Shown here piece after piece: positions 1,284-16,202 of a DNA stretch of 39,361 nt (the first letter of the stretch is position 1; each line of letters opens with the position of its first letter). The stretch lies in contig JADHUQ010000002.1 in assembly GCA_016784425.1 (NCBI GenBank), forward strand, positions 1 through 39,361, given 5' to 3'. Made by a program: the position numbers and the translations under genes. Under the pieces are notes generated by a model that saw only the letters and a program-made list of their open reading frames with translations, ran no database searches and was not told where the DNA came from. Origin of the DNA: Candidatus Delongbacteria bacterium (GTDB taxonomy: Bacteria; CAIWAD01; BS150m-G50).

Positions 1284-3092
1284 TTGATTACGAGATACTG
1301 GGCGGCGATTGAGGTGAAACCGTTACGACTCTCTCTCGGTTTCAAACTCTTTGCGGTAAGTACCCTGATAGTACTGCTGACCGGTGCCAGCATCGGTGTC
1401 ATCAGTATGCTGGAGGCGAGGCAGACAATCGAACAGGAAGCGAGTCGACAGCTGATGGGGGTGGCTCTGGAACGACGCGCCCGCCTCGAGTTGTGGCTGA
1501 GTGAACGAATGCGGGCCGCCTCACTGGAGTCTGTCCCTGAGATCCGGCTGGTGATCGAGAGTTGCGAAATTCATCCTCAGCAATGCCCCGGCATTCTGCA
1601 ACCGTTGAACTCGCTCCTGGAGCAGAAGATGGAGCTTGACAGCACCATGCTCTTCGCCGCAGTTTTCGACCAGGAGTTGAACCTGCTCGCCTGCGCCGGT
1701 TCCGGTGTGGATGTTACCGCCGCGGTCAGCCTGCCGGAAGTACTCAGCGCCCTCAAAGGGAAAGGATCCTATGGGCGTCTGCAATTGAACGATGACCAGA
1801 TCGCCGCGCTGAATCTGGCGGTCCCCTTTTCACTCCCCTACGGAACCAACGGTATCCTCCTGCAGCAGTACAGCAGCGCCACCACGATCAATCCGGTCCT
1901 GGCCGATATTGCCGATCTTGGACAGCGGGGTGAGGCGTACCTGGTCGATGCTGATACCGTCATGCTGACCCCCTCCCGTTTTCATCATCATCCGGAACCG
2001 TTGACCCACAAGATGCCGTTGCCACCGGTATTGGAGGCATTACAGGGGAAGAGCGGTGTTATGGTTTATGCCGGCTTTCTCGGTGGAAAAGTGATGGGTG
2101 CCTACAACTGGTTACCGGAAATCAACGGGGCCATCATCGTGGAGATGGATATCGAAGAGGTATTCGCACCCTTGCGGGGAATCCTGGTCGACACCCTGCT
2201 GGCGGCCACGGTCGCCCTGGCAGTGATGCTCTCCATCGTCCTGTTGCTGGCCCGCAACTGGAGCAGACCGCTGGGCGCTCTGGTCACCGCCAGTAATCAG
2301 GTCGGCAGGGGAGACCTCACCGTACGGGTAGCAGAAGAGAGCCGGGGTGATGAAATCGGCAGCCTGTTGGTCAATTTCAACCTCATGGTCAAAGGTCTGG
2401 AGGATTCCCGCCGCCAGCTGGTACAGGCGGAAAAGATGGCCGCCATCGGGCAACTGGTTGCCGGTATCGTACACGAAATGCGTAATCCCCTCTCCTCTAT
2501 CAAAATGAATGTCAGGTTGCTGCAACGGCGGCTGCAGGAGATGTCAACGGTCAGGGAGAGCCTCGAGATTGCCTCCGGGGAGGTGGAACGGCTGGAAAGA
2601 ATGCTGGCTGAACTGCTGGATTACAGTAAGCCGCCGACATTCAAACCTGAAACCTTTGCACCCGGAATTCTGTTGGAACGGGTACGCCGGGCAGTGACGG
2701 AACCGGCCGCAGCAAACGAGATCGAGCTCACCTGCACCAGCGCACCGGAAATCGCCACCCTCTACGGAGATCTTGAGCTGATGGAAAGGGCGGTAGTAAA
2801 CCTGTTACTCAATGCTATTCAAGCCTGCGATAAGAAGGGCAGGGTGGAGCTGCGGATCGAGGAGGCAGCCGGTGGCACGCTTCTGCAGGTCAGTGATCGC
2901 GGCCGGGGTATGAATACCCATGTGCTGGAACGGTTGTTTGACCCCTTCTTTACCACTCGTCCGGACGGGATCGGTCTGGGGATGGCTTCCGTCAGGAAAA
3001 TTGTTGAGACTCATGACGGACAACTCCAGGTTGAAAGCCTGGTTGACCAGGGTACAACAGTGAGAATAATTCTGCCGGGAGGAAACAGCTGA
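1284..3092 (+). CDS. Sensor histidine kinase (TM, about 260-aa periplasmic Cache-like domain, TM, HAMP, HisKA, HATPase_c)
   Basis: Two hydrophobic segments (about aa 20-44 and 300-325) bracket an extracytoplasmic domain. H-box VAGIVHEMRNPLSSI, N-box NLLLNAIQA, G1 DRGRGM and G2 GIGLGMA are present. The start is uncertain: TTG at 1284 or in-frame GTG at 1314. The stop overlaps the start of the downstream regulator (ATGA at 3089-3092). Confidence 0.9.
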   Translation: MITRYWAAIEVKPLRLSLGFKLFAVSTLIVLLTGASIGVISMLEARQTIEQEASRQLMGVALERRARLELWLSERMRAASLESVPEIRLVIESCEIHPQQCPGILQPLNSLLEQKMELDSTMLFAAVFDQELNLLACAGSGVDVTAAVSLPEVLSALKGKGSYGRLQLNDDQIAALNLAVPFSLPYGTNGILLQQYSSATTINPVLADIADLGQRGEAYLVDADTVMLTPSRFHHHPEPLTHKMPLPPVLEALQGKSGVMVYAGFLGGKVMGAYNWLPEINGAIIVEMDIEEVFAPLRGILVDTLLAATVALAVMLSIVLLLARNWSRPLGALVTASNQVGRGDLTVRVAEESRGDEIGSLLVNFNLMVKGLEDSRRQLVQAEKMAAIGQLVAGIVHEMRNPLSSIKMNVRLLQRRLQEMSTVRESLEIASGEVERLERMLAELLDYSKPPTFKPETFAPGILLERVRRAVTEPAAANEIELTCTSAPEIATLYGDLELMERAVVNLLLNAIQACDKKGRVELRIEEAAGGTLLQVSDRGRGMNTHVLERLFDPFFTTRPDGIGLGMASVRKIVETHDGQLQVESLVDQGTTVRIILPGGNS

Positions 3093-4432
3093 TGGCCCGT
3101 ATTCTGGTGATTGACGATGATAAAGCCGCCTGCAGAACGTTGGAGTTGTTTTTCCAGGAGGCGGGGCACGAAGTGTTGACCGCCGGTACAGCCGCCTCTG
3201 GTATGGAGACTTGGCGGAAATCCAACCCCAGTGTTGTCCTGCTGGACCTGATGCTACCGGACGGTTACGGTCTGGACCTGCTTACGGAAGCCAGTCAGCA
3301 GGGTTTACCCGGTGTGGTGATCATGATTACCGGACACCAGGATCTGGATCTGACAATCCAGGGAATGCGTAGCGGTGCCTGGGACTATATTCACAAACCG
3401 CTCAACATTGATGAGTTGGAACAGGCGGTGATGAGTGCGCTGGCGTTGGAGAACAACACGGAGAATCCCGCTCTGGTAGTGGACCTGCTGGCCGAGATCC
3501 ATCCGGAGAAGATTGTCGGTTGCAGCCGGGCGCTGGTCGAAATCCATAAAAAGATCGGTCTGACCAGCCGGGGGCAGGCCAATGTCCTGATCACCGGTGA
3601 TTCCGGGACCGGTAAGGAACTGGTCGCCCGTGCCATTCACCGCTACACCTGTCCCCTGGAGCCGCTGGTGGCGGTAAACTGCAGCGCTTTTGTCCCCACC
3701 CTGCTGGAGAGTGAACTGTTCGGACATGAAAAAGGCGCCTTTACCGGGGCTGACCGTAAAAAGCAGGGTCGCTTTGAACTGGCGGGCAGCGGGACACTTT
3801 TCCTGGACGAAATCGGCGACCTGGATCACGCCCTGCAGGTCAAGTTGCTGCGGGTACTCCAGGAAAAAGTTTTCGAGCGGGTGGGCGGCACCGAGGAGGT
3901 AGAATTCAAAGCCCGGGTGATCGCCGCCACCAACCGTGACCTGGAGTCGCTGGTTGCCGCCGGCAGTTTTCGGGAAGACCTCCTCTTCCGTCTCAAAGTA
4001 ATCGAGATTGATCTCCCCCCCCTGCGGGAGAGACGGGAAGATATTCCACCCCTTACCGAACACCTGCTGCTCAAGATCAACCGCGAGCTGAAGCGGGAGG
4101 TTACCGAGGTTGCGCCGGCTGTTCTGCAACGCCTGCAGAATTATGACTGGCCCGGTAATGTAAGAGAACTGGAGAATCGACTTACCGCCGCGGTCATGCT
4201 TTCAAATGGAAAATCGCTGGATATCGATCTGCCGCAGCCGGAGGGAGCCGCTGAGCCGCCTCCCTCGAGTTCGTCAGACTGGCAGAGTTCGCTGGCACAG
4301 GTGGAAAGTCGGCATATCGCCGGTGTACTGAAAGCTTGTGGCTGGAATCTGGGTAAGACCTGTGATATTCTCGGTATCACCCGTCCGACTTTGCGTCGAA
4401 AAATTGAGGAGTACTCCCTCACCCGGGATTGA
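3092..4432 (+). CDS. Sigma54-dependent response regulator (REC + AAA+ sigma54-interaction domain + Fis-type HTH), NtrC/ZraR family
   Basis: REC domain with LLDLMLPD. Walker A GDSGTGKE. Intact GAFTGA loop (EKGAFTGA). Walker [18 protein letters not shown] and a C-terminal HTH_8 ([15 protein letters not shown]) are present. Translationally coupled to the kinase. Confidence 0.95.
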
Positions 4433-4450
4433 AAATAACAAACATCACAG

Positions 4451-4467
4451 TGAATGATTCTTTCAAT
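4451..4467 (-). promoter_or_regulatory. Candidate enhancer (UAS) site 1, ATTGAAAGAATCATTCA on the minus strand, embedded in the inverted repeat GTGAAT-N10-ATTCAC (4450-4471)
   Basis: Centred about 90 bp upstream of the -24 GG at 4549. It shares 15/17 nt with the site at 13507-13523 and the exact 8-mer ATTGAAAG with the site at 6799-6815. Confidence 0.4.
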
Positions 4468-4547
4468 TCACCCCAACGGTATTTAACCGGGGAGAATATA
4501 CTGGTTGTAACACAAGAACATACAGCAACTTAAGATTGAGAGATTTT

Positions 4548-4563
4548 AGGCACGCCCTTTGCT
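4548..4563 (+). promoter_or_regulatory. Sigma54 (-24/-12) promoter P1: AGGCAC-GCCCT-TTGCT
   Basis: GG at 4549-4550 and GC at 4561-4562 give exact GG-N10-GC spacing. It matches the TGGCAC-N5-TTGCW consensus at all but the first base. It lies about 80 nt upstream of the DUF2892 start and directly downstream of the bEBP gene. Confidence 0.7.
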
Positions 4564-4643
4564 TTGACAGGGGTAGTTACAGGTAGACCGGACAGTCTTA
4601 AACAGCCGGTCCGGCACACCCTTGAATCGCAAAGGAGATCCAA

Positions 4644-4862
4644 ATGAAACGAAATGTAGGCAATGGAGATCGCTATTTCAGGGTAGCAGTAGGAATTATT
4701 GTTATCGCGGTCGGCCTTTATTGGGAAACCTGGTGGGGCGCAATCGGGCTCCTGCCACTGTTAACAGGCGCTATGGGCTGGTGCCCGGCGTATTTGCCGT
4801 TAGGATTATCCAGCCGTAAAGGCGATCATTTAACAGAAGCATCCACTGAAGGCAATAAATGA
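4644..4862 (+). CDS. DUF2892 (YgaP-like) small inner-membrane protein
   Basis: AAAGGAG lies upstream of the ATG. The 72-aa product has the family pattern DRxFRxxxG...two TM helices...GWCPAY. It is the first gene after sigma54 promoter P1. Confidence 0.8.
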   Translation: MKRNVGNGDRYFRVAVGIIVIAVGLYWETWWGAIGLLPLLTGAMGWCPAYLPLGLSSRKGDHLTEASTEGNK

Positions 4863-5107
4863 TCCGTTTGGTTTAAATGGGGCAGGGGTAGCAGACTGGA
4901 ACGGAGACTGAACGGAATAACAGCATGGATGCAAGAAGCACCATTGGTCTGGTTCGTTTATAACCTGTTCCAGCATGACTCATAAAACCTGCTCATGCGA
5001 CCGCCAATCGCCAGGATGTGCCTTATTGAAAACAGTAAAAGCAGATAGAAATGACTTAGCAGAAGAACCGTGATCAAACACAACCTAAAAAATGATGGAG
5101 GATTCAA

Positions 5108-5689
5108 ATGAAGATGAAACTACTCACCCCCCGCCTGACCGGATTAGCCCTGGCAGCCATGATGTTGTTCAGTTTTCAGGCTGTCAGCTTTGCTGGTGCC
5201 GGATGTGGCAAGACCTGCGGCAGCACCTGTGGCAGTGCGAAAGTCGGCGCTGATCTTGGTGTTGGTTGCAGTGGTCATGCTACGGCGACCGCAACGACTG
5301 ATGGAGCTACAACTGAGAAGAAAGCTGCCTGCCCCCATGCTGGAGCCGGTCATGCTGTTGGTGCCGGTGCTGCGGGTAACCCCCATGCCGCTATGGCGAT
5401 GGAAGCTCTGAATTATGTCAACACCGCCGAGAAGCTCTACACCTGCCCGATGCATGCTGAAGTAGTAACAGCGGATGGTGATAAGCTCTGTCCCTCCTGC
5501 AACATGGAGTTACGCCCGATGAGCGCCAAGGAGATGAAGAAATTGCGTGCTTCCGAGCCCAAAGGTTGTCCGATGTGCGCCCTGGTTCTGCCTGGTGACG
5601 CTGAGCAGACAACCTGTCCCACCTGCGAAATGAAGCTGATGCCGGTGCCCCCGATGCCCCAGACTGGTCGCACACCCGCAGGAATGTAG
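5108..5689 (+). CDS. Secreted Cys/His/Met-rich metal-binding protein with two HMBD-type modules (paralog 1)
   Basis: GGAGGA RBS. Signal peptide MKMKLLTPRLTGLALAAMMLFSFQAVSFA. CGKTCGSTCGS and GCSGHA motifs, plus a His/Ala-rich stretch. Module 1 is LYTCPMHAEVV...CPSCNMEL and module 2 is GCPMC...CPTCEMKL, both of the heavy-metal-binding-domain pattern YxCPMHP...CPxCxMxL. Confidence 0.8.
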   Translation: MKMKLLTPRLTGLALAAMMLFSFQAVSFAGAGCGKTCGSTCGSAKVGADLGVGCSGHATATATTDGATTEKKAACPHAGAGHAVGAGAAGNPHAAMAMEALNYVNTAEKLYTCPMHAEVVTADGDKLCPSCNMELRPMSAKEMKKLRASEPKGCPMCALVLPGDAEQTTCPTCEMKLMPVPPMPQTGRTPAGM

Positions 5690-5692
5690 CAA

Positions 5693-6634
5693 ATGACACT
5701 CAGTGCTCAACGGCTGGCTATGGAGATCGACGATCTGCGTCGCAGTCAGAACGCTGTAATACTGGCCCATTTTTATCAACGGGATGAGATTCAGAATCTC
5801 GCTGACGAAATCGGTGATTCACTGAAGCTGGCCCAGGTAGCAGCAGAAACGACAGCAGATGTGATAATGTTCTGCGGTGTTCGCTTTATGGCGGAAACCG
5901 CTAAAATCCTCAATCAGGATAAAACAGTATTGCTGCCGGATCTGGACGCTGGTTGCTCACTGGTCAACGATTGTCCCGCTGATAAGTTCGCCGCCTTCAA
6001 GGCGGACTATCCGGATCATATCGTTCTCTGTTATGTCAACTCCTCGCCGGAAGTAAAAGCACTGAGCGATATTATTGTTACCAGCGCCAACGCTGAGAAG
6101 ATCGTACGAACTATCCCTCCAGAACAGGGGATCATATTCACACCCGATCGCAACCTGGGCCGTTATCTGATACGCAAAACCGGTCGGGAAATGGTACTCT
6201 GGCAAGCGGACTGTGAGGTACATGTGGCTTTCAGCGAGCAGGAGTTACTCCGTGTCAAACAGGAAAATCCCGGCGTCAAAGTCCTGGCACATCCTGAATG
6301 TATCCAGGAGGTTTTGCAGCATGCTGAAGTGGTTGGATCCACCAGCAAGCTGCTGCAGTATTCTCGTGAAAGTGATGATGCTGCCCTCATTGTTGCCACG
6401 GAACCGGGGATCATTTACCAGATGCAGAAGAGCAATCCAGACCGCAAGTACATCCTGGCTCCAGCCATACTCGATGGACGGGAATGCGCCTGTAATGTCT
6501 GCCCCTACATGAAACTCAACACACTTGAGAAGATACACGCAGCCTTCAAAACCGGTCAGCCGGAAATAACACTGCCGTCAGAACTGATGCGTGAAGCTGC
6601 CCGTCCGATCAAGCGGATGTTGGAACTTTCTTAA
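5693..6634 (+). CDS. nadA: Quinolinate synthase NadA ([4Fe-4S] enzyme of de novo NAD synthesis)
   Basis: 313 aa. AVILAHFYQRDEIQNLAD.IGDSL.L, FCGVRFMAETAKIL, DAGCSL, HPEC and CPYMK are present, covering the conserved NadA blocks and the three cluster Cys positions. The start lies 3 nt after the stop of the HMBD-1 gene. Confidence 0.93.
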   Translation: MTLSAQRLAMEIDDLRRSQNAVILAHFYQRDEIQNLADEIGDSLKLAQVAAETTADVIMFCGVRFMAETAKILNQDKTVLLPDLDAGCSLVNDCPADKFAAFKADYPDHIVLCYVNSSPEVKALSDIIVTSANAEKIVRTIPPEQGIIFTPDRNLGRYLIRKTGREMVLWQADCEVHVAFSEQELLRVKQENPGVKVLAHPECIQEVLQHAEVVGSTSKLLQYSRESDDAALIVATEPGIIYQMQKSNPDRKYILAPAILDGRECACNVCPYMKLNTLEKIHAAFKTGQPEITLPSELMREAARPIKRMLELS

Positions 6635-6798
6635 GAGCTGCCGGGATCCGGCTGGCGTCTGATCACTACCCCCTGCTAGGTGTTCAGATCCACCGGACCC
6701 CGTGCGCTCTTTGTTTTGATGACTGTTACCACCTGAGTTACAGATTCTCAGTTTCTTATTGCGGCAACGACTTTGAAGTTCGATAAGATCAGGGACCG

Positions 6799-6815
6799 AT
6801 TGAAAGTTTCTTGCA
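6799..6815 (+). promoter_or_regulatory. Candidate enhancer (UAS) site 2, ATTGAAAGTTTCTTGCA (part of the near-palindrome ATTGAAAG-TTT-CTTGCAAT)
   Basis: Centred about 117 bp upstream of the -24 GG at 6924. It carries the same 8-mer and overall pattern as sites 1 and 3. Confidence 0.4.
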
Positions 6816-6922
6816 ATTCTACCAGGACACCTCTCCCCAAGTCTGCTCTTTCTGTTTATAACACAGCTTAAAAATCCCACCTAAATACTTAATATAAAAT
6901 TGGTTACATCATTCTATTGTGG

Positions 6923-6938
6923 TGGCACAGCTTTTGCG
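6923..6938 (+). promoter_or_regulatory. Sigma54 (-24/-12) promoter P2: TGGCAC-AGCTT-TTGCG
   Basis: GG at 6924-6925 and GC at 6936-6937 give exact N10 spacing, with a perfect TGGCAC and TTGC. It lies about 45 nt upstream of the outer-membrane factor gene. Confidence 0.75.
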
Positions 6939-6983
6939 TAACCACGCTTTGAGCTCGCAATCGTTGGTAGCGTCTTTTGTCAA

Positions 6984-8303
6984 ATGAGGCTTATGATGGT
7001 TAAGTTTTTGAAAGAAGGTGGTTTTCTCCCCTTTACTACCGGTATCCTGATGCTGGTTGCGGTCAGTCACACCACAGCGCAAATCACCGAATTGGAACCG
7101 CAGCTGCAGGACCATATCAGGGCAGCCTTGACAGATAACCTGGATCTTGACAGCTGGACAGAGCGGGTGACAGCCTCAGAAAAGAGGATTTCACAGGCGG
7201 GTGCCTGGCAGGATCCAATGCTCACGGTCGGTTTGATGAACCTCCCGGTAAATTCGTTTGATTTCAATCAGGAACCGATGACTGGTGCCTGGATCACACT
7301 GTCACAATCGATCCCACTCACTGACCGGTATTCAACCCAGCGGGACATAGCGACTCTCTCGACGGAACGGGTTGAAACAGAGCTTCTGGTGCGCCAATTC
7401 GACATCGCCGGGAGCATCGGTGAAGCCTGGTATGACTGGACTTTTTACAGGGCTGCGGTGGCTACACTCGACTCCACCATCGAGGTACTGGATCAGTTTC
7501 TCCAGATTGCGGGCAGCAAGTATGAGACCGGTTCCGGTTTGCTGCAGGATCTTTTCAAAATTGAGACTGAACAGGCCCGTCTGCTCGACAAGCGTGCGGT
7601 ACTTGCACAGATGGCAAAAACCACCGGTGAAAGAGTGGCAATCCTGCTGGGACGAGATCCGCTGGATGTACCACCAGCGCCCGGTTCAATCCCACAGCAA
7701 TTCACTCCACTGACGGATATCGGTCTGGACAGCCTGCTCATCAAAGACAGTCCCACCCTCGCTTCAACTCGCACCGGCCTGGAGATCACCCGCCGTCAGC
7801 TGGATCTGAAAAAAAGCTTACGCTGGCCCAATCTGAACCTGAATGCCGGGTACGGCTACCGCCAGGATGCAGCTGATGGAATGTCCCGGCCTGATTTTTT
7901 CAGCCTTACGGCCGGTATCTCTATTCCTGTCTTCGGTTCAGCCAAGCAGGGCGCCGCTGTTGAAGAAGCTGCCGCGGTATCACGAGAGCGGCAATCACAA
8001 TTGAACAACCAGCTCCTTCAACTCCGTTTTGCACTCCAGGCCTTACTGGATGAGGATTTACGATTGGATGAACAGATCACAATATACAGTAGCAACCTGC
8101 TACCGTTGGCAACGGCGACAGTGTCGGCTTCCATCTCAACCTATTCCGTGAATAAGACCGACATAGAGGCATTGCTGATGGCGCAGACAGCTCTGTTTAA
8201 TTCGAGACTGGAACTGATAGACCGGCTGCGTGATCGTGCGAAAACCCGGGTGAGAATTGCCGCCCTGGTCGGCAGCAGCGAGCTGATACTTCGCGACGAG
8301 TAG
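6984..8303 (+). CDS. cusC: Outer-membrane efflux factor (TolC/OEP family, CusC/CzcC-like)
   Basis: Signal peptide. Two OEP repeats with long heptad-like helical stretches. It sits as the first gene of an OMF-MFP-RND operon. There is no lipobox Cys, so it is CzcC-like in that respect. ATG at 6993 is an alternative start. Confidence 0.85.
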   Translation: MRLMMVKFLKEGGFLPFTTGILMLVAVSHTTAQITELEPQLQDHIRAALTDNLDLDSWTERVTASEKRISQAGAWQDPMLTVGLMNLPVNSFDFNQEPMTGAWITLSQSIPLTDRYSTQRDIATLSTERVETELLVRQFDIAGSIGEAWYDWTFYRAAVATLDSTIEVLDQFLQIAGSKYETGSGLLQDLFKIETEQARLLDKRAVLAQMAKTTGERVAILLGRDPLDVPPAPGSIPQQFTPLTDIGLDSLLIKDSPTLASTRTGLEITRRQLDLKKSLRWPNLNLNAGYGYRQDAADGMSRPDFFSLTAGISIPVFGSAKQGAAVEEAAAVSRERQSQLNNQLLQLRFALQALLDEDLRLDEQITIYSSNLLPLATATVSASISTYSVNKTDIEALLMAQTALFNSRLELIDRLRDRAKTRVRIAALVGSSELILRDE

Positions 8304-8330
8304 CGCTTTCCTGAGGAGTACAAACCACTT

Positions 8331-8413
8331 ATAGTATTGCTTGCTTCGTTGCTGCAGGCAACGCTTTAGTAATTAATGACCGCTGAGGGGATTAGTTTGT
8401 GAAGCAATACTAT
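8331..8413 (+). repeat. Nested inverted repeats in the 181-bp cusC-cusB spacer (predicted RNA stem-loop structure)
   Basis: The outer arms ATAGTATTGCTT (8331-8342) and AAGCAATACTAT (8402-8413) are perfectly complementary over 12 nt. An inner hairpin is CGTTGC-TGCAG-GCAACG (8347-8363). There is no ORF in the spacer. Confidence 0.4.
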
Positions 8414-8484
8414 GGGCCCGATGCTTTGCTGACCGCGCTTTAAAGGCGATTAATTCTAAGCATCGGTATAACAGAGGTGATAGA

Positions 8485-10218
8485 ATGGATAGAAAGAGAA
8501 TGGGGATTATGACAGCTGCCCTCCTGTCCGGGCTGGTCATACTGTTGTCTGCAGGCTACCTGATTGTCCCCATAACTAATGCTGAGAGTGGAGCTGCCGT
8601 CTACAGTGACCTCCATGTCGACTCCATGCATCCCTGGATTGCTTCTGAGGGACCCGGGAAATGCTCTATCTGCGGGATGAAGCTGAGCCAGGTTCAGGGT
8701 CACCGGCCGGGGACCACCCTGCCGGCTGTCGATAACCTGTATGTCACTCCCTCCAATCCGATGTGGGTCCACGAGGGGCCTGGTGAGCACCCTGAGACTG
8801 GTGAACAGTTGATCCCGATCAAGCAATCACCCTATTATCAAGCGCCGGTGGAGGATCATGCAGAGGATCACGATCAGTCCGGCATGTCAATGCAGGAATC
8901 TCCTGCAGCCGTCTCACACAGCCAGGAGGGGGATGAAGCGCAGCTCTATACCTGTGGCATGCACCCGGATGTAATACAGGATGAACCGGGAACCTGCCCG
9001 ATCTGCAGTATGAATCTGACCCCGATCCGCGGTTCCGGCAGGTCATCCACCACTGGTGAGCGTGAGATTGCCTATTGGGTTGCCCCGATGGATCCCGGTT
9101 TTATTTCGGATACACCCGGCAAGTCGCCGATGGGAATGGATCTCGTCCCGGTCTACGCTGATCAACTGAGCGAGGGGACAGTACAGATCGATCCGGTAAC
9201 CCTGCAGAGCATCGGCGTGAGAACAGAACCTGCAACGATGAGAGATCTGGCCCGATCGATCCGTTCCAATGGGATCGTAAAAGTCGCCGAGGATTCTGAA
9301 TTTAAATTGAATGCCAGAATATCCGGCTGGGTTGAGCGACTGCATGTGTCACGAACCGGTGACCGGGTAGTGGCTGGTCAACCGCTGCTTGACATCTACA
9401 GTCCCCAGCTGGTTTCCGCACAGAAAGATCTTTTGCTCGCAATGCGCAGCGGATCAAGCAGCAGTTCCAGGCTGGTCGCAGCCGTACGCCAGCGTCTGCG
9501 ATTCTGGAATATCTCAGAAGCGCAGATCGACGAACTTGCAGGAACCGGGCAGATCAGGCAGTCGCTGACCCTGACCAGTCCCGGCACCGGTATTGTGCTC
9601 CACAAGAATGTTGTCGAGGGATCGTCAGTCAGCGCGGGAATGGACCTGTTCAGAATTGCCGACCTTGAAACCCTCTGGGTTATCGCCCAGATTTACGAGT
9701 ACGAGGTTCCCTGGATCTCCATCGGGGATAAGGTGGAAATCCGCTCCCCCTATGATCCCGGTCTGACTGTCACAGGTACCTTGTCTTTCATCTATCCAAC
9801 CCTGGATACCAGGTCCAGAACAGTCGAGCTCCGCATCGTTATTCCGAATCCGGACTTGCGCTTCAAACCGGAGATGTATGTTGATGTCACAATCCAGACC
9901 TCCTCGCGGGAGGATGTTGTAGCGGTTCCCAAATCGGCCGTAATCAGGACAGGTGAACGGGACCTTGTCTTCGTACAGAGGGGACAGGGGCGGTTTGAAC
10001 CGGTTGAGGTACATCTTGGCCTGGAAGCCGGTCGCTACTACGAAATCGCCCACGGTCTGCAGGCCGGCGAAGAGGTTGTTGTTTCTGCACAGTTCCTGCT
10101 GGACAGCGAGGCAAAACTGCAGGAAGCTATCCAGCGACGGATTCAGCAAAGAAAACAGCCGGGTAAATCGAACCCCGTCACCACAGAAACATCTCCCGGT
10201 AGTCAGCATCAGCACTGA
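8485..10218 (+). CDS. cusB: RND efflux periplasmic adaptor (CusB family) with an N-terminal extension carrying HMBD modules
   Basis: TM/signal anchor. Modules MHPWIASEGPGKCSICGMKL and YTCGMHPDVIQDEPGTCPICSMNLTPI. Then IAYWVAPMDPGFISDTPGKSPMGMDLVPVY and barrel-sandwich / beta-barrel blocks typical of CusB-type MFPs. Confidence 0.92.
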   Translation: MDRKRMGIMTAALLSGLVILLSAGYLIVPITNAESGAAVYSDLHVDSMHPWIASEGPGKCSICGMKLSQVQGHRPGTTLPAVDNLYVTPSNPMWVHEGPGEHPETGEQLIPIKQSPYYQAPVEDHAEDHDQSGMSMQESPAAVSHSQEGDEAQLYTCGMHPDVIQDEPGTCPICSMNLTPIRGSGRSSTTGEREIAYWVAPMDPGFISDTPGKSPMGMDLVPVYADQLSEGTVQIDPVTLQSIGVRTEPATMRDLARSIRSNGIVKVAEDSEFKLNARISGWVERLHVSRTGDRVVAGQPLLDIYSPQLVSAQKDLLLAMRSGSSSSSRLVAAVRQRLRFWNISEAQIDELAGTGQIRQSLTLTSPGTGIVLHKNVVEGSSVSAGMDLFRIADLETLWVIAQIYEYEVPWISIGDKVEIRSPYDPGLTVTGTLSFIYPTLDTRSRTVELRIVIPNPDLRFKPEMYVDVTIQTSSREDVVAVPKSAVIRTGERDLVFVQRGQGRFEPVEVHLGLEAGRYYEIAHGLQAGEEVVVSAQFLLDSEAKLQEAIQRRIQQRKQPGKSNPVTTETSPGSQHQH

Positions 10219-10312
10219 AACGGAATACGGCTTGAAATACTTATACCCGGATCGCAGCAACGACTGTGTTTATCACAAAGCAGTATCACCGAGATTGCAT
10301 TAGAGGCCGAAC

Positions 10313-13300
10313 ATGAACCTGATCGAACGCATCATCGATGGAAGCATTAAGAATCGGCTTCTGATAATTCTCGTTACCCTGGCTCTCGTGGCGATGGGAA
10401 CCTATTCCCTCCTGACCATACCGGTTGACGCGATTCCCGACCTGTCCGATGTCCAGGTGATCGTAATCGCCGATTACCCCGGCCAGTCCCCCCAGGTTGT
10501 CGAGGACCAGATTATCTACCCCCTGACCACCGCACTGTTATCGGTCCCCTTCGTGAAAGATGTACGGGGCTACAGTTTCTTCAATTTTGGTATGGTGTAT
10601 CTGCTTTTTGAGGATGGCACCGATCTCTACTGGGCCAGGAGCCGGGTGCTGGAATATCTGAACCAGGCCGCCCAGAGAATGCCGGAAGGGGTTACCCCCC
10701 GGCTCGGTCCGGATGCCACCGGCCTGGGCTGGATCTACCAGTATACACTCGAATCGGATAACCACTCACTGCAGGAACTCCGCTCGCTGCAGGACTGGTA
10801 TATGCGGTATGAATTACAGACCGTTCCCGGTGTTGCCGAGGTGGCCAGTCTCGGTGGCTTCGTCAAACAATACCAGGTAGCCGTTGACCCGGATCGTCTG
10901 GCCGCACTGGGGATTCCCCTGCAGAAAGTGAAAATGGCGCTGGCTGCTTCGAATAATGATGTCGGGGGCAGGCTGATTGAGATGGCAGAGACCGAGTATT
11001 TCGTCAGGGGTCTGGGTTACCTGAGTGGAGATACCGACGCTGATATCATTGCCCAGATTGAGAGTATTGCGCTGGGTGTCAATGAGAACGGATTCCCGAT
11101 TCTGCTGAAACAGGTCGCAAATGTTGCAGTGGGTCCCGAGTTACGCCGTGGAATAGCAGAATGGAATGGGGAAGGGGAGACGGTGGGAGGAATTGTGGTC
11201 CTCCGGTTTGGTGAGAACGCCCTGGCGGTGATCAAGCGGGTTCAGGCCAAATTGCACGATCTGGAAACAGGTCTCCCGGAAGGGGTGAGAATTGTTACCG
11301 CTTATGACAGGTCAGATCTCATCTATCGGGCCATCGACACCCTGAAAGAAAAACTGACCGAGGAGATGATTGTCGTTGCTCTGATAATTCTCATCTTCCT
11401 GCTCCATTTCAGGAGTGCCCTGGTACCGATCCTGGCGCTGCCGGCAGGTGTACTGATTTCCTTCATGGTGATGAAGTGGATGGGGATTAACGCCAATATC
11501 ATGTCGTTGGGAGGTATTGCCATTGCGATTGGAGTGATGGTCGATGCCTCAGTAGTCATGGTGGAGAACGCCCACAAACATCTCGAAAGGGACAGTGGCG
11601 ACAAAACCCACGCGCAGATCATCTCTGAAGCCGCCCGGGAGGTTGGACCCGCGCTTTTCTTCAGCCTGTTGATAATAACTGTCAGTTTCTTCCCGGTTTT
11701 CAGTTTACAGGCCCAGGAAGGGAGGCTGTTCAGTCCGCTGGCATTTACCAAAACCTTTGCCATGGGGGCTTCAGCCATTCTGGCGATTACTATTGTACCG
11801 GTGCTCATGGTGATATTTGTGCGTGGCAAAATCATAAACGAGGCTAAAAATCCACTCTCGCGTTTCTTTATCTGGCTTTACCGACCCTTCATCAAAACAG
11901 TTCTTCGCCGACCGCTGCTGGTACTGCTCGGCAGCGTGATCGTTCTGGGGATTACCTACTTCCCTTACAGCAGGTTGGGGAGCGAGTTCATGCCACCGCT
12001 GAACGAAGGTGACCTGCTCTATATGCCGACCACACCACCTGGAATCTCCCCGGAGAAAGCGAGGGAGTTACTGCAACAGACTGATCGTATTATCGCCAGT
12101 TTCCCCGAAGTTGAACATGCCTTCGGCAAGATTGGTCGAGCTGAAACCGCCACCGATCCGGCACCGCTGTCGATGATTGAAACCACCATCATTCTGAAAA
12201 AGGACAGATCAGAATGGCGGGCAGGGGTAGACCTTGATTCCCTGGTAAAAGCGCTGGATGCGGCCATTCAATTTCCCGGTTTGACCAACGCCTGGACGAT
12301 GCCGATCAAGACCCGCATCGATATGCTCTCGACCGGGATCAAGACACCGGTCGGCATCAAGATTATGGGTGATGATCTGGAACAGCTGGCCCGGTTGGGG
12401 GAACAGATTGAAGCTGCGGTCAGTACAGTTGAGGGAGTTACTTCAGCCTATGCTGAACGGGCGATTGGCGGCAAGTATATAGACATCCGGATTAACCGTG
12501 AACAGATCGCCAGGCTGGGCTTGACCGTCGGCGATGTACAGGCTGTTATTATGACTGCTCTGGGAGGGATGAATGTCACCTGGACTGTGGAGGGTCAGGC
12601 GCGCTATCCGGTGAATGTCAGGTATCTGCGTGAACGGAGGGATGACATTTCCGATATATCCCGTATCAGAGTTCCGACCCCCGCCGGTGGGCAGGTCCCG
12701 CTCGGTCAACTGTCCGATATCAGGATTGTCGATGGCCCGCCGATGATAAAAACAGAGAACGCCCGCAAGACAGTCTGGGTCTATGTGGATACGAGGGACA
12801 GCGATATCGGTGGATTTGTGGAGCGGCTGCAGCAGGTTGTCAGGAGCGAGATCGATCTTCCGATCGGTTATTCGATAGTCTGGTCCGGTCAATTCGAATA
12901 CATGGAAAGGGCGAGCAAGCGGCTCAAACTGATCATACCGTTGACCCTGCTTATCATCTTCTTCCTGCTGTATGTCCACTTCGGCAATGTCACGGAGTCG
13001 CTGGTGGTCATGCTCACCCTCCCCTTTGCCATGGTGGGGGGAATCTGGCTGATGTATATCCTCGGTTTCAACTCTTCCGTTGCGGTTGCCGTCGGCTTTA
13101 TTGCCCTGCTCGGTCTGGCTGCGGAAACCGGTGTGGTGATGCTGGTGTATCTGGATGAATCCTTCCAGCGTTACACGGACGAAAATCGGATGCGTTACCG
13201 GTCAGATCTCAGAGGTGCCATCATGGAGGGGGCGGTGGATCGTGTGCGTCCCAAGCTGATGACGGTGGCGACCACCCTGATCGGTCTGTTACCGATCATG

Positions 13301-13483
13301 TTTGGCACATCCACCGGATCCGAGATTATGAAAAGGATTGCCGCGCCAATGGTCGGCGGACTGATCTCCTCCACCATTCTGACCCTCATCATCCTGCCTG
13401 CCGTGTACTATCTGATCAAGAGCAGGAGGGTCAGCCCGGATCCTGCGGTGGTAAAACCCACCAGTCCTGAAGGCGCCCGGTAG
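10313..13483 (+). CDS. cusA: CusA/CzcA-family heavy-metal efflux RND pump, CusA-like (Cu(I)/Ag(I))
   Basis: 1056 aa, with long collinear similarity to E. coli CusA as I remember it (PVDAIPDLSDVQVI, YWARSRVLEYLNQ, GPDATGLGWIYQY, LRSLQDW, RRGIAEWNGEGE, NANIMSLGGIAIA.G.MVDA). The three Met contexts of the CusA metal site are kept: LLYMPTT, PLSMIETT and RIDMLSTGIK. Confidence 0.96.
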   Translation: MNLIERIIDGSIKNRLLIILVTLALVAMGTYSLLTIPVDAIPDLSDVQVIVIADYPGQSPQVVEDQIIYPLTTALLSVPFVKDVRGYSFFNFGMVYLLFEDGTDLYWARSRVLEYLNQAAQRMPEGVTPRLGPDATGLGWIYQYTLESDNHSLQELRSLQDWYMRYELQTVPGVAEVASLGGFVKQYQVAVDPDRLAALGIPLQKVKMALAASNNDVGGRLIEMAETEYFVRGLGYLSGDTDADIIAQIESIALGVNENGFPILLKQVANVAVGPELRRGIAEWNGEGETVGGIVVLRFGENALAVIKRVQAKLHDLETGLPEGVRIVTAYDRSDLIYRAIDTLKEKLTEEMIVVALIILIFLLHFRSALVPILALPAGVLISFMVMKWMGINANIMSLGGIAIAIGVMVDASVVMVENAHKHLERDSGDKTHAQIISEAAREVGPALFFSLLIITVSFFPVFSLQAQEGRLFSPLAFTKTFAMGASAILAITIVPVLMVIFVRGKIINEAKNPLSRFFIWLYRPFIKTVLRRPLLVLLGSVIVLGITYFPYSRLGSEFMPPLNEGDLLYMPTTPPGISPEKARELLQQTDRIIASFPEVEHAFGKIGRAETATDPAPLSMIETTIILKKDRSEWRAGVDLDSLVKALDAAIQFPGLTNAWTMPIKTRIDMLSTGIKTPVGIKIMGDDLEQLARLGEQIEAAVSTVEGVTSAYAERAIGGKYIDIRINREQIARLGLTVGDVQAVIMTALGGMNVTWTVEGQARYPVNVRYLRERRDDISDISRIRVPTPAGGQVPLGQLSDIRIVDGPPMIKTENARKTVWVYVDTRDSDIGGFVERLQQVVRSEIDLPIGYSIVWSGQFEYMERASKRLKLIIPLTLLIIFFLLYVHFGNVTESLVVMLTLPFAMVGGIWLMYILGFNSSVAVAVGFIALLGLAAETGVVMLVYLDESFQRYTDENRMRYRSDLRGAIMEGAVDRVRPKLMTVATTLIGLLPIMFGTSTGSEIMKRIAAPMVGGLISSTILTLIILPAVYYLIKSRRVSPDPAVVKPTSPEGAR

Positions 13484-13506
13484 ATCCGCATCAAACAGCT
13501 CCTGAA

Positions 13507-13523
13507 ATTGAAAGATCCATTCA
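13507..13523 (+). promoter_or_regulatory. Candidate enhancer (UAS) site 3, ATTGAAAGATCCATTCA
   Basis: Centred about 83 bp upstream of the -24 GG at 13598. 15/17 identical to site 1. It overlaps the left arm of the cusA terminator hairpin. Confidence 0.4.
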
Positions 13524-13543
13524 GTACTGGATGGATCTTTTTT
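13511..13543 (+). terminator. Rho-independent terminator after cusA
   Basis: AAAGATCCATTCAGT / ACTGGATGGATCTTT is a near-perfect hairpin of about 10-11 bp, followed directly by TTTTTT (13538-13543). It starts 28 nt after the cusA stop. Confidence 0.65.
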
Positions 13544-13596
13544 ATTACCCAGCTGTCATCTAAATCTAAGATGTTATATATCAATATATTACATAT

Positions 13597-13612
13597 TGGC
13601 ACACTTGTTGCT
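13597..13612 (+). promoter_or_regulatory. Sigma54 (-24/-12) promoter P3: TGGCAC-ACTTG-TTGCT
   Basis: GG at 13598-13599 and GC at 13610-13611 give exact N10 spacing and a perfect consensus core. An IHF-like match, TATCAATATATTA (WATCAA-N4-TTR), lies at 13579-13591 just upstream. Confidence 0.75.
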
Positions 13613-13700
13613 GATAATCATTATCAAATAGAGATTTTCAGCGATGACTGAACTGAGAACAGTTTGAACTTAACACCAAATGAAGATAAGGGAGAAAAAA

Positions 13701-14222
13701 ATGTTTAGTAGAATCAGTAGAACATTGGGCTTTATGATGGTAGTAGCTTTAGCTGGTGCGCCACTGTTGGTGAATAGTGCAGTAGCCTGTGATGGTTGTA
13801 CGGGACACGCAAAAGTAGCAGTGCCCGACCAGGGTGAGCAGTACGGCACCATGAAGGCCAGCCAGGTTTCCTCAAGCCATGACGGCCATCAGGAAGCTCA
13901 TGGCATGATGGAGGCAATGGAACACGCCAAAGGAACCAGCCTGGGAATGATCATGACGGCTGAGCATCTGTACAGCTGTCCGATGCACCCGGAAGTCGTT
14001 GCCGTCGACGCAGAAACCACCTGTCCCCTCTGTAACATGAACCTAACCCCGATGAGTCAGGATGATGTTGTCAAATTGCGCAGCTCCCATCCTGAGGCTT
14101 GCCCGATGGATCCAATCGTGGTCGCAGGAAACAGCGACGTAGAAACCTGTCCGATCTGCAAGATGGATCTTACAGAGATTCAGCTGCCAGATATGGAAAG
14201 TGGACATGTGCATCGCCAGTAG
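13701..14222 (+). CDS. Secreted Cys/His/Met-rich metal-binding protein with two HMBD-type modules (paralog 2)
   Basis: AGGGAG lies 7-8 nt before the ATG at 13701. The track ORF begins at 13680 in the same frame. Signal peptide MFSRISRTLGFMMVVALAGAPLLVNSAVA. ACDGCTGHA and an HDGHQEAHGMMEAMEH stretch. Modules LYSCPMHPEVV...CPLCNMNL and ACPMDP...CPICKMDL. Same architecture as 5108-5689. Confidence 0.8.
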   Translation: MFSRISRTLGFMMVVALAGAPLLVNSAVACDGCTGHAKVAVPDQGEQYGTMKASQVSSSHDGHQEAHGMMEAMEHAKGTSLGMIMTAEHLYSCPMHPEVVAVDAETTCPLCNMNLTPMSQDDVVKLRSSHPEACPMDPIVVAGNSDVETCPICKMDLTEIQLPDMESGHVHRQ

Positions 14223-14723
14223 GCTGCTGTCGGTTGACAATAGCGATATTGTTGATAACAGGCTATAAAGGCTTTCAAAAAGGACAGATTGCTCTTTGCT
14301 TGAAGGAGAGGATAGTGAGGGCAGACGATCGGCCAGTGTCACCTGATACTGGCTGATCTCTTTTAGGTCAGCTTCGATTACCTCCGGACTGTTCAAGCAG
14401 GAGCTGCCAGCTTCGGGGAGAAAGGGGGCTGTTCGGTTAAGATAATTGTGTCATACCATATTGAATCAGCGTTTCACAGAAGTGTGCCCGGCAATAATCG
14501 GGGAAAACCGGGTTCGGAAAAACAGTGCTGCTTGCACAACGCCTGCCTGTAAGCTACTTTGCACCTGAGCTCTCTTCGTTGTTGTTTCCGGGTCACAAAG
14601 GAATTCTGCTCCGAAGGGCCAGGCTCAATAGTTTTACCTGAAAGCATTCCGGGATTCCTCGGAAAGATCAGCTGCCACGATGCTGCGCAAACTCTGCACA
14701 GACTAACAGGAAAGCCGGATGAT

Positions 14724-16202
14724 ATGAATCTGATGTTGATCATTCATATAATCGAGAGTCTGCTGATCATCTATTTCTCACTGTATCTGCTGATAGAGCT
14801 GGCGATGATCGTGATATTCTTCTTTGTCTGGCGTTCATCATCAGATACTACTGTGCAGTTGGATAAATCTGCCGTAAGCGGGCAGGGGATAACTATCATC
14901 GTCCCGGCTTACAATGAGGAAATGACCATTGTCGATGTGGTAGAGATGCTGGGGGAGTCGGATTATCCTGAATATGAAATCATTGTTGTAACTGACGGTT
15001 GTACCGATGCTACCCTGCAAAAACTGCAGGACCGTTATGCGTTGCAGGATGTTGCCCGGGAATTTGTTGATGATATTGGCACCTCAGGTGTAAACCAGCT
15101 CTACACCAGCCCGGTGAATTCACGTCTGACGGTAATTGACAAACCCAATGGGGGTAAAGCCGACGCACTCAATGTCGGCTTGAGTTTTGCCAGTCATCCC
15201 TACGCCTGTACAATTGATGCCGATTCTATTCTCGATCCCCAGGCGTTGCGGCAGGTAGCTGCACCGTTTCTGGCAGCTGACGGCGAAAGTGTGGTGATGG
15301 TCGGCGGGGCGCTGGCCGTTGCCAACCGGACCAGGCTGGTAGGGAATCGCCTGACAGGAGGTGAGTTTCCCCGTAATCCCTGGGTCGTCTTTCAGGTCAT
15401 CGAGTACCTGCGCTCGTTCCTGGTCAGTCGAACCGGTCTCGCCAGGATACGCGCACTGCTTATTCTATCGGGCGCTTTTACGCTGTTCCGACGCGAAAGC
15501 CTGCTGGCAGCAGGTGGTTTTCTCTCACTGCACAACCATCACCCCTACATCAAAGAGCTGGGACTTGACGGACGGCACACTGTCTGTGAGGATATGGAGG
15601 TTGTGGTCAGGTTGCGCAGATATCTGAAAGAACAGGGAAAGCCCTCCCGGACCGTATTTCTGCCCCGTCCGATCTGCTGGACAGAAGTTCCGGACAATGC
15701 CGCAAATCTTTCGCTGCAACGCAATCGCTGGCATCGGGGACTGCTGGAGACAATTTACTTTCACCGGAAACTGATTCTGGAGCCATTCTATGGTTCTCTC
15801 GGACTCATCGCCCTGCCATATTACCTGATCTTTGAGGCTATATCACCGATCATAAAATTGCTGGCGCTCCTTTTCGTCGGCGGATTGCTGGCCTGGGGAT
15901 TGGTAAACCGGATGGCGATGATTCTGCTGCTGCTGTCGGTCAACATCACCACAGTAATCTTCATCGGGATTATTACAGTTGTGGTTGAGAGCTGGGGGAG
16001 CAAACACTCACCGGTGAATGTTGCCGCACTCAGGTACCGCAATCATCCGGACTGGCTGGCGCTCCTGGGGATGTCAATACTGGGTGATTTCACCTTTGCC
16101 CATATCCGTATGTTCTGGCAACTAGGGGGAATCAGTGGTTTTCTGAAGGGTAGAAAATCGTGGGATAAATTTGAAAGGAAAGGATTTCATGAAGCTGCGT
16201 AG
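14724..16202 (+). CDS. Processive family-2 glycosyltransferase, PgaC/IcaA-like exopolysaccharide synthase
   Basis: N-terminal TM helix. IIVPAYNEE, VVTDGCTDAT, NGGKADALN, TIDADS (DxD), LSGAFTLFRR, CEDMEVVVRL and QRNRWHRG (QxxRW) are present. Several C-terminal TM helices follow. The track ORF start at 14559 adds 55 non-hydrophobic residues with no support, so I prefer the ATG at 14724. Confidence 0.9.
   Translation: MNLMLIIHIIESLLIIYFSLYLLIELAMIVIFFFVWRSSSDTTVQLDKSAVSGQGITIIVPAYNEEMTIVDVVEMLGESDYPEYEIIVVTDGCTDATLQKLQDRYALQDVAREFVDDIGTSGVNQLYTSPVNSRLTVIDKPNGGKADALNVGLSFASHPYACTIDADSILDPQALRQVAAPFLAADGESVVMVGGALAVANRTRLVGNRLTGGEFPRNPWVVFQVIEYLRSFLVSRTGLARIRALLILSGAFTLFRRESLLAAGGFLSLHNHHPYIKELGLDGRHTVCEDMEVVVRLRRYLKEQGKPSRTVFLPRPICWTEVPDNAANLSLQRNRWHRGLLETIYFHRKLILEPFYGSLGLIALPYYLIFEAISPIIKLLALLFVGGLLAWGLVNRMAMILLLLSVNITTVIFIGIITVVVESWGSKHSPVNVAALRYRNHPDWLALLGMSILGDFTFAHIRMFWQLGGISGFLKGRKSWDKFERKGFHEAA

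Follow-up and report, generated by a model that had tools for sequence, protein, structure and literature searches.

A 39,361-nt stretch of DNA from an uncultured marine lineage of the FCB group (Candidatus Delongbacteria bacterium, contig JADHUQ010000002.1; the whole stretch is called the window here) encodes a sensor kinase and an NtrC-type response regulator, followed by HMBD proteins and the components of a CusCBA-type efflux pump. Three similar sequence elements lie in this cluster, each upstream of a predicted sigma-54 promoter, and the locus raises the question of which protein, if any, recognizes them. The original prediction, made from the letters alone, took the elements to be where the adjacent NtrC-type regulator binds. 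Our comparative analysis favors the same answer: the three elements are probably the upstream activating sequences (UASs) of the response regulator encoded at 3092 to 4432. Support for this reading comes from a motif derived without the window, from a phylogenetic footprint, from a link between the element and one type of helix-turn-helix (HTH) domain, and from co-expression of the downstream genes. The motif scan of this organism covers the 39-kb window.

Three copies of a 19-bp dyad lie upstream of predicted sigma-54 promoters

The shared element is a 19-bp dyad with the consensus ATTGAAmr-N3-ykTTCAAT, of which the window contains three copies: UAS1, AGTGAATGATTCTTTCAAT, at 4449 to 4467; UAS2, ATTGAAAGTTTCTTGCAAT, at 6799 to 6817; and UAS3, ATTGAAAGATCCATTCAGT, at 13507 to 13525 (none of the three is assigned a strand). 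These are sites 1, 2 and 3 of the original prediction, which had described them as a 17-nt motif with positions and sequences that we could reproduce. The exact 8-mer on which that description was built, ATTGAAAG, is indeed common to all three sites, but it carries no statistical weight alone, being present in three copies against 1.43 expected and reaching at least three copies in 20 of 100 shuffles. The longer pattern ATTGAAAGNNNCWTKCA, allowing up to two mismatches, has seven matches in the window against 1.0 expected, and none of 100 shuffles reached seven. Six of the seven matches are the same three sites, each read on both strands, and the element itself is therefore palindromic, A-N-TGMAWG-N3-CWTKCA-N-T, over 19 bp. 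The core, TGMAWGNNNCWTKCA, is matched perfectly at exactly three places in the window and nowhere in the 1.28 Mb of unrelated bacterial loci that were scanned. The local symmetry previously pointed out at site 1, GTGAAT-N10-ATTCAC, is present, but its axis lies 2.5 bp off the true dyad axis. Over four DNA runs, three single-nucleotide polymorphisms were found in 3 kb, none of them inside the motifs, and the population is nearly clonal.

All three sigma-54 promoters are intergenic and on the plus strand, each lies downstream of one dyad, and their consensus is conserved in orthologues. P1 (4548 to 4562) reads AGGCAC-N5-TTGC, with a single mismatch, and is itself conserved in orthologues; P2 (6923 to 6937) and P3 (13597 to 13611) are perfect copies of TGGCAC-N5-TTGC. 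Counted from the dyad centre to the −24 T (the first base of the −24 element), UAS1, UAS2 and UAS3 lie 90, 115 and 81 bp upstream of their promoters; the centre-to-GG distances of about 90, 117 and 83 bp given before hold to within 1 bp. All three distances fall within the range of about 70 to 200 bp upstream of a −24 GG/−12 GC promoter at which enhancers lie, and they place the dyads at −106 to −140 relative to the predicted transcription start.

A motif derived from orthologous loci recovers the same three sites

A search for the regulator in species-representative genomes returned only paralogues of at most 48% identity, with no motif. The protein database yielded relatives at 84, 81 and 61 to 64% identity, one of them from Candidatus Electryonea clarkiae, of an FCB-group candidate phylum, and we took the contigs of these relatives as orthologous loci. 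The kinase-regulator pair is present in all of them and is mostly followed directly either by OEP-CusB-CusA-HMBD genes or by ygaP/HMBD-nadA; in L094 the pair lies downstream of the cus genes. In every orthologous locus there is a TGGCAY-N5-TTGC promoter with a dyad of the same type 72 to 115 bp upstream, among them ATTGAACGTTTTGTTCAAT in L089 and L095, AGTGAACGTTTTGTTCAAT in L093 and CTTGAAAACATCTTTCAAT in L081.

We ran a palindromic expectation-maximization search on nine non-redundant orthologous upstream regions, with the window excluded. The motif that emerged, ATTGAACGAATCGTTCAAT (19.7 bits), is the same palindrome, so that de novo discovery, which had been proposed as a check on the original prediction, found the dyad in orthologous promoters. 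The centres of the best sites in the nine regions lie at −93, −94, −93, −115, −82, −94, −93, −72 and −93. When this matrix was used to scan the 39-kb window, the three predicted sites occupied ranks 1 to 3, with UAS1 at 21.2 bits, UAS2 at 19.3 bits and UAS3 at 18.4 bits; the fourth-best match scored 6.8 bits. Markov simulations predict only 0.065 sites scoring 15 bits or more per window, and four such sites were found in 1.28 Mb of unrelated loci.

The spacing is specific to each promoter and has been kept. The dyad of the cusC promoter lies at −115 in both the window and L089; that of the HMBD promoter lies at −81 in the window and at −82 in L089, where the dyad, ATTGAAAGATTCATTCAAT, is orthologous to UAS3; and the dyad that follows the regulator gene lies at about −93 in the orthologues (−90 in the window). 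Dyad and spacing persist across regulators that are 61 to 84% identical, down to the relatives at 61 to 64%, with the surrounding intergenic DNA diverged. In pairwise and seven-way alignments identity is confined to the dyad and the −24/−12 elements, which constitutes a phylogenetic footprint.

Tandem dyads, 20 to 23 bp apart, are found in most orthologues. In the window, a weak partner half-site, ATTGAAAATAACAAACATC (4428 to 4446, no strand assigned), lies 21 bp upstream of UAS1 and overlaps the stop codon of the regulator gene; it scores 2.0 bits, a value reached at about 1% of random positions, and the corresponding place in orthologues is occupied by a strong dyad. The flank scan detected no second dyad above 0 bits beside sites 2 and 3.

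The closest relatives, whose regulator is 84% identical, have a decayed cus operon, whereas that of the window is intact. Frame-broken remnants of the cusA C terminus lie between ygaP and the HMBD gene in L081 (11780 to 12260) and also in L249 (6606 to 6905). L091 is an L093-like locus from which cusCBA is missing (11340 to 11460, compared with 10800 to 10920 of L093); its tandem dyads and sigma-54 promoter have been kept, and the gene that they now precede, at a distance of about 360 bp, encodes a DAO/FAD oxidoreductase.

The three units downstream of the dyads were co-expressed in seawater

RNA data were available as assembled contigs from four seawater metatranscriptome runs (X8 to X11). 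Within the whole 39-kb window these contigs cover only 4592 to 5816, 6986 to 8928, and 13649 to 14336, corresponding to ygaP, the gene for a 193-aa HMBD protein (HMBD193) and the start of nadA; cusC and cusB; and the gene for a 180-aa HMBD protein (HMBD180). No RNA contig from the four runs lay over the kinase, the regulator, cusA or any other part of the window. The contigs start at 4592 to 4639 for the P1 unit, 6986 to 7041 for the P2 unit and 13649 to 13662 for the P3 unit. Relative to the transcription starts that the −12 elements predict, the earliest contigs of the three units begin 18, 37 and 26 nt further downstream, and none lies upstream. One contig of the P1 unit spans 4592 to 5233, with coverage continuing to about 5816 and fading within nadA. 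This layout indicates that the three units are transcribed together, and separately from the genes upstream of them. The three units were co-expressed in situ, and the candidate regulon was visibly on in these seawater samples.

The HMBD180 transcript was by far the best represented in the window, at a depth of 43 to 72 versus 3 to 27 for the other two units. Its contigs end at 14319 to 14336, beside a terminator-like hairpin at 14327 to 14358.

The dyad accompanies one type of HTH domain

We searched 185,579 species genomes for loci in which TGGCAY-N5-TTGC comes 62 to 92 bp after the dyad, using the reversed promoter as the control. The combination was found in 38 loci, against 8 with the reversed promoter (Poisson p = 1.7e-14), and none of the 8 control loci contained an enhancer-binding protein gene. 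In many of the 38 loci there is a kinase-regulator pair whose regulator gene ends right before the dyad. A scan with the motif alone added another case, L143, where 13 nt separate the end of the gene for an RPTL-type regulator from a perfect ATTGAACGTTTCGTTCAAT.

The C-terminal domains of the regulators in the dyad loci share the signature LG(K/E)xCxxLGI(S/T)RPTLRxK with the regulator of the window. In 80 loci fetched by overall similarity, nearly all regulators instead have the usual form, (R/K)AAxxLGIxRxTL, including ZraR in L067. The sequence [ST]RP[TA]L was present in the recognition helix of 11 of 14 regulators from motif-selected loci, compared with 2 of 83 from similarity-selected loci (Fisher p = 2.7e-10). 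The distant relatives differ widely in their target genes (ADH, Peripla_BP_6, ATP-synt_C, Oxidored_FMN, a Rieske dioxygenase and an AMP-binding enzyme), which indicates that the dyad tracks the DNA-binding domain and not the regulated function. In three different Syntrophales metagenome-assembled genomes (L222, L224 and L234), the dyad and sigma-54 promoter precede a gene whose 125-aa product resembles the ATP-synthase c subunit, which one would not expect an enhancer-binding protein to control.

A broader proposal, about which we are evenly divided, is that the dyad TTGAAmr-N3-ykTTCAA and the HTH LGx(A/T)CxxLGI(S/T)RPTLRxK form an uncatalogued recognition pair that defines a subfamily of NtrC-type regulators, rewired to varied outputs and with tandem dyads that often double as the terminator of the upstream gene. 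Such a subfamily may extend through FCB-group candidate phyla (relatives of the Electryoneota), Syntrophia, Desulfobacterota and possibly Planctomycetota. Its output would be Cu efflux in the window and, in other loci, ADH, an amino-acid-binding protein, the ATP-synthase c subunit, OYE reductases, a Rieske dioxygenase and an acyl-CoA ligase. If the proposal is right, one DNA element ends one transcript and switches on the next. The link between HTH and motif could also let annotators predict enhancers for more orphan NtrC-type regulators.

Alternative explanations for the dyads

Several observations weigh against the dyads as enhancers of the regulator. Many enhancer-binding proteins use two or more sites, and orthologues have tandem dyads, yet each promoter in the window has a single strong dyad, only that of site 1 being accompanied by a weak partner. 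L230 and L243, from other phyla, carry the dyad beside regulators with an ordinary HTH that lacks RPTL. Conversely, the regulators of L001 and L016 are RPTL-like, yet no dyad lies within 450 bp downstream of their genes. The RNA evidence consists of contigs and not of read 5′ ends, so the transcription starts are bracketed only, and site 3 is confounded by the terminator of cusA. The lone dyads of the window and the dyads beside ordinary regulators would both suit a real, conserved operator of some other protein, such as a nucleoid protein or a separate repressor or activator that responds to metal, with the regulator acting from another, unrecognized site or from solution. We regard this arrangement as unlikely, because the dyad accompanies the regulator gene even where the targets have changed (the cus operon is deleted in L091, and metabolic genes take its place in other phyla), because it correlates with one HTH type, and because it lies as far from the predicted start as enhancers do, and not where an operator would overlap the promoter. 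Chance resemblance in AT-rich intergenic DNA would explain the lack of enrichment of the 8-mer. It would also fit the worldwide distribution of the exact 19-mer, which is mostly found without a sigma-54 promoter: among the matches listed, 1 of 120 sampled lies near one, which is what some 500 chance matches spread over 596 Gb would give. A matrix built independently of the window nevertheless puts exactly these three sites first, with a gap of 12 bits to the next, and the sites are conserved in orthologues upstream of units that are co-expressed here; coincidence is effectively refuted.

The elements might alternatively act mainly as RNA or DNA structures, that is, as terminators or 3′-end hairpins of the regulator gene, nadA and cusA, with their closeness to promoters a side effect of compact intergenic regions. 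The original prediction had cautioned that site 3 doubles as the left arm of the hairpin that terminates cusA, and this is borne out: an intrinsic terminator of cusA on the plus strand, at 13511 to 13546, has arms AAAGATCCATTCAGT and ACTGGATGGATCTTT followed by TTTTTT, the left arm lying within UAS3. It starts 28 nt past the cusA stop codon and comprises a 15-nt inverted repeat, 93% complementary with about 14 bp paired, a GUAC loop and a U6 run; its fold of −18.7 kcal/mol (z = −3.5) is that of a strong rho-independent terminator. Tandem dyads of orthologues also fold into long hairpins, at −23 kcal/mol (z = −4.8) in L093 and with z = −2.8 in L089, and in several orthologues the dyad begins at the stop codon of the regulator gene. 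By contrast, the folds of sites 1 and 2 (z = −0.18 and +0.54) are no more stable than those of shuffled sequence, and site 2 lies 165 bp past the nadA stop codon. What has been kept, moreover, is the sequence TTGAA...TTCAA and not just the pairing, the half-sites differ without compensation (TGAAAG versus TGAATG), and the distance from dyad to promoter is conserved promoter by promoter. These three features all point to protein recognition as the primary constraint, and we consider it very unlikely that the elements serve chiefly as structures.

Adjacent dyads form one long inverted repeat in L093 (10798 to 10835), in L089 (12966 to 13004) and in the window (13507 to 13546), and the 3-nt spacers are complementary (TTT/AAA, ATT/AAT and ATC/GAT) in L093, at the L089_P2 promoter of L089 and at site 3 of the window. 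Such an inverted repeat with complementary spacers could let an enhancer pair serve the gene upstream as its terminator or 3′ hairpin as well, and in the orthologues with tandem dyads the pair may also terminate that gene. The TGA stop codon of the regulator lies inside the first dyad in L089, L091 and L095. No known RNA family was identified by Rfam within 4000 to 15000.

A candidate mechanism for activation by the regulator

If the dyads are the enhancers of the regulator, activation could proceed as follows. The kinase (1284 to 3092) would respond to a signal in the periplasm (Cu(I)/Ag(I) stress is the likeliest) by phosphorylating the regulator, dimers of which would dock on each dyad through a Fis-type HTH with the recognition helix ITRPTLRRK. 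The dyad-bound regulators would form an active AAA+ ring, presumably by oligomerization from the single strong dyad at each promoter. By looping of the intervening AT-rich DNA, this ring would reach the closed complex of sigma-54 RNA polymerase 80 to 115 bp downstream, and ATP hydrolysis would open P1 to P3, so that ygaP-HMBD193-nadA, cusCBA and the HMBD180 gene are co-induced. The dyads are well supported as probable enhancers of the standard NtrC-family type, an ordinary kind of regulatory element: besides the spacing, the dyad symmetry suits a dimeric Fis-type HTH, an intact cognate activator is encoded nearby, and the element is conserved and co-varies with the DNA-binding domain.

The IHF-consensus match previously reported between site 3 and its promoter, at 13579 to 13591, exists, but it is at chance level (two matches to WATCAANNNNTTR in the window versus 1.15 expected) and is not conserved in L089. 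No match to WATCAANNNNTTR that lies between enhancer and promoter, is conserved and exceeds chance was found in the window to suggest a site for IHF-assisted looping. Just 6 bp separate the end of the supposed match from the −24 element of P3, and the match falls within an AT-rich inverted repeat (13568 to 13597; 14-nt arms, 86% complementary) that abuts this −24 element.

Comparison with known systems

The NtrC site has the consensus TGCACC-N5-GGTGCA. The window motif, TTGAAmr-N3-ykTTCAA, is unlike it, and the system differs further from the NtrC enhancers in its unusual RPTLR recognition helix and in having one strong dyad per promoter. The overall arrangement is nevertheless that of NtrC-family enhancers such as the NtrC sites at glnAp2 and the sites of enhancer-binding proteins in Desulfovibrio vulgaris (PMC4641369): a dyad for a REC-AAA+-HTH_8 activator lies about 100 bp upstream of a GG-N10-GC promoter, with the activator gene adjoining its target. 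In D. vulgaris, most sites of enhancer-binding proteins are about 100 nt from the promoter (PMC4641369).

The closest functional analogue that we found, likened by function and not by orthology, is CorSR of Myxococcus xanthus, also a copper-linked sigma-54 two-component system, in which a sigma-54-dependent response regulator (PF00072-PF00158-PF02954) controls copper-tolerance genes and several putative sigma-54 promoters lie in one cluster (PMC3707914). Its targets, however, are a multicopper oxidase and a P-type ATPase, with no CusCBA pump, and the enhancer sequence is not defined in that study (PMC3707914). AtoSC of E. coli resembles the window system in that AtoC and AtoS are the top NCBIfam models for the regulator and the kinase, but the scores are far below the equivalog cut-offs (397 versus 714 and 207 versus 646), and its targets and recognition helix are others. 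ZraSR (HydHG) of E. coli, with its target zraP, is the classical metal-responsive (Zn/Pb) sigma-54 two-component system, and its reported sites of action are inverted repeats between zraP and zraS (Leonhartsberger et al. 2001). The HTH of ZraR, NKTEAARQLGITRKTLLAKL (L067), lacks the RPTL signature, and its target is a periplasmic chaperone and not an RND pump.

In output, the window system is like CusRS-cusCFBA of E. coli, where a tripartite Cu(I)/Ag(I) pump of the CusCBA type is likewise under control. CusR belongs to the OmpR-type winged-helix regulators and acts at a sigma-70 promoter, whereas the regulator of the window is an NtrC-type sigma-54 activator, and HMBD-domain proteins stand in the place of cusF. 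The dyads offer a concrete candidate cis-element and regulon for a sigma-54 two-component system over a CusCBA-type copper/silver pump, a task for which model bacteria use the OmpR-type CusRS. We found no description of the dyad motif or of sigma-54 control of cusCBA in the literature, coverage of which was incomplete, so that this is not proof of novelty.

The two-component system and the genes downstream of the dyads

By Pfam, the sensor histidine kinase (1284 to 3092, plus strand) has HAMP, HisKA and HATPase_c domains; its best NCBIfam models, AtoS and ZraS, both scored under cut-off. The N-terminal sensor region (1284 to 2270, about 320 aa) has no Pfam match in the window, although some orthologous kinases scored dCache_1. 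A His-rich stretch in the kinase N terminus, FHHHPEPLTH, could bind metal.

The response regulator (3092 to 4432, plus strand) has the REC, AAA+ sigma-54 activator and HTH_8 domains (Pfam) of a bacterial enhancer-binding protein. GAFTGA occupies residues 215 to 220, Walker A (GDSGTGK) is at 169, and Walker B is also present. By NCBIfam scoring, the regulator is not an equivalog of ZraR (327 bits versus a cut-off of 760), of AtoC (397 versus 714) or of NtrC. Among solved structures there is no close relative of its DNA-binding domain, the best being NtrC4 of Aquifex (E = 0.004).

Downstream of P1, operon 1 (4644 to 6634, plus strand) encodes, by Pfam, a ygaP-like membrane protein (4644 to 4862), HMBD193 (5108 to 5689) and NadA (5693 to 6634), in a gene order that is syntenic in L081 and L084. 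The nadA gene, for the Fe-S enzyme quinolinate synthase, begins 4 nt past the HMBD193 stop codon and is syntenic with the HMBD gene in the same two loci; it therefore appears to be part of the metal-responsive operon.

Downstream of P2, the cus genes (6984 to 13483, plus strand) encode, again by Pfam, a CusC-like OEP (6984 to 8303), a CusB-like adaptor with three HMBD repeats (8485 to 10218) and a CusA-like RND pump (10313 to 13483). The pump exceeds the cut-off of the CusA/CzcA model TIGR00914 (1194 bits versus 701, NCBIfam) and is closer to E. coli CusA (1205 bits) than to the Zn pump ZneA (545 bits). On this comparison, Cu(I)/Ag(I) is its likely substrate.

Downstream of P3 lies the gene for HMBD180 (13680 to 14222, plus strand), a putative periplasmic metal-binding protein identified by the Pfam domain HMBD. 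The gene probably starts not at 13680 but at the ATG at 13701: a GGGAG lies 8 nt upstream of this codon, and the sequence after it resembles a signal peptide.

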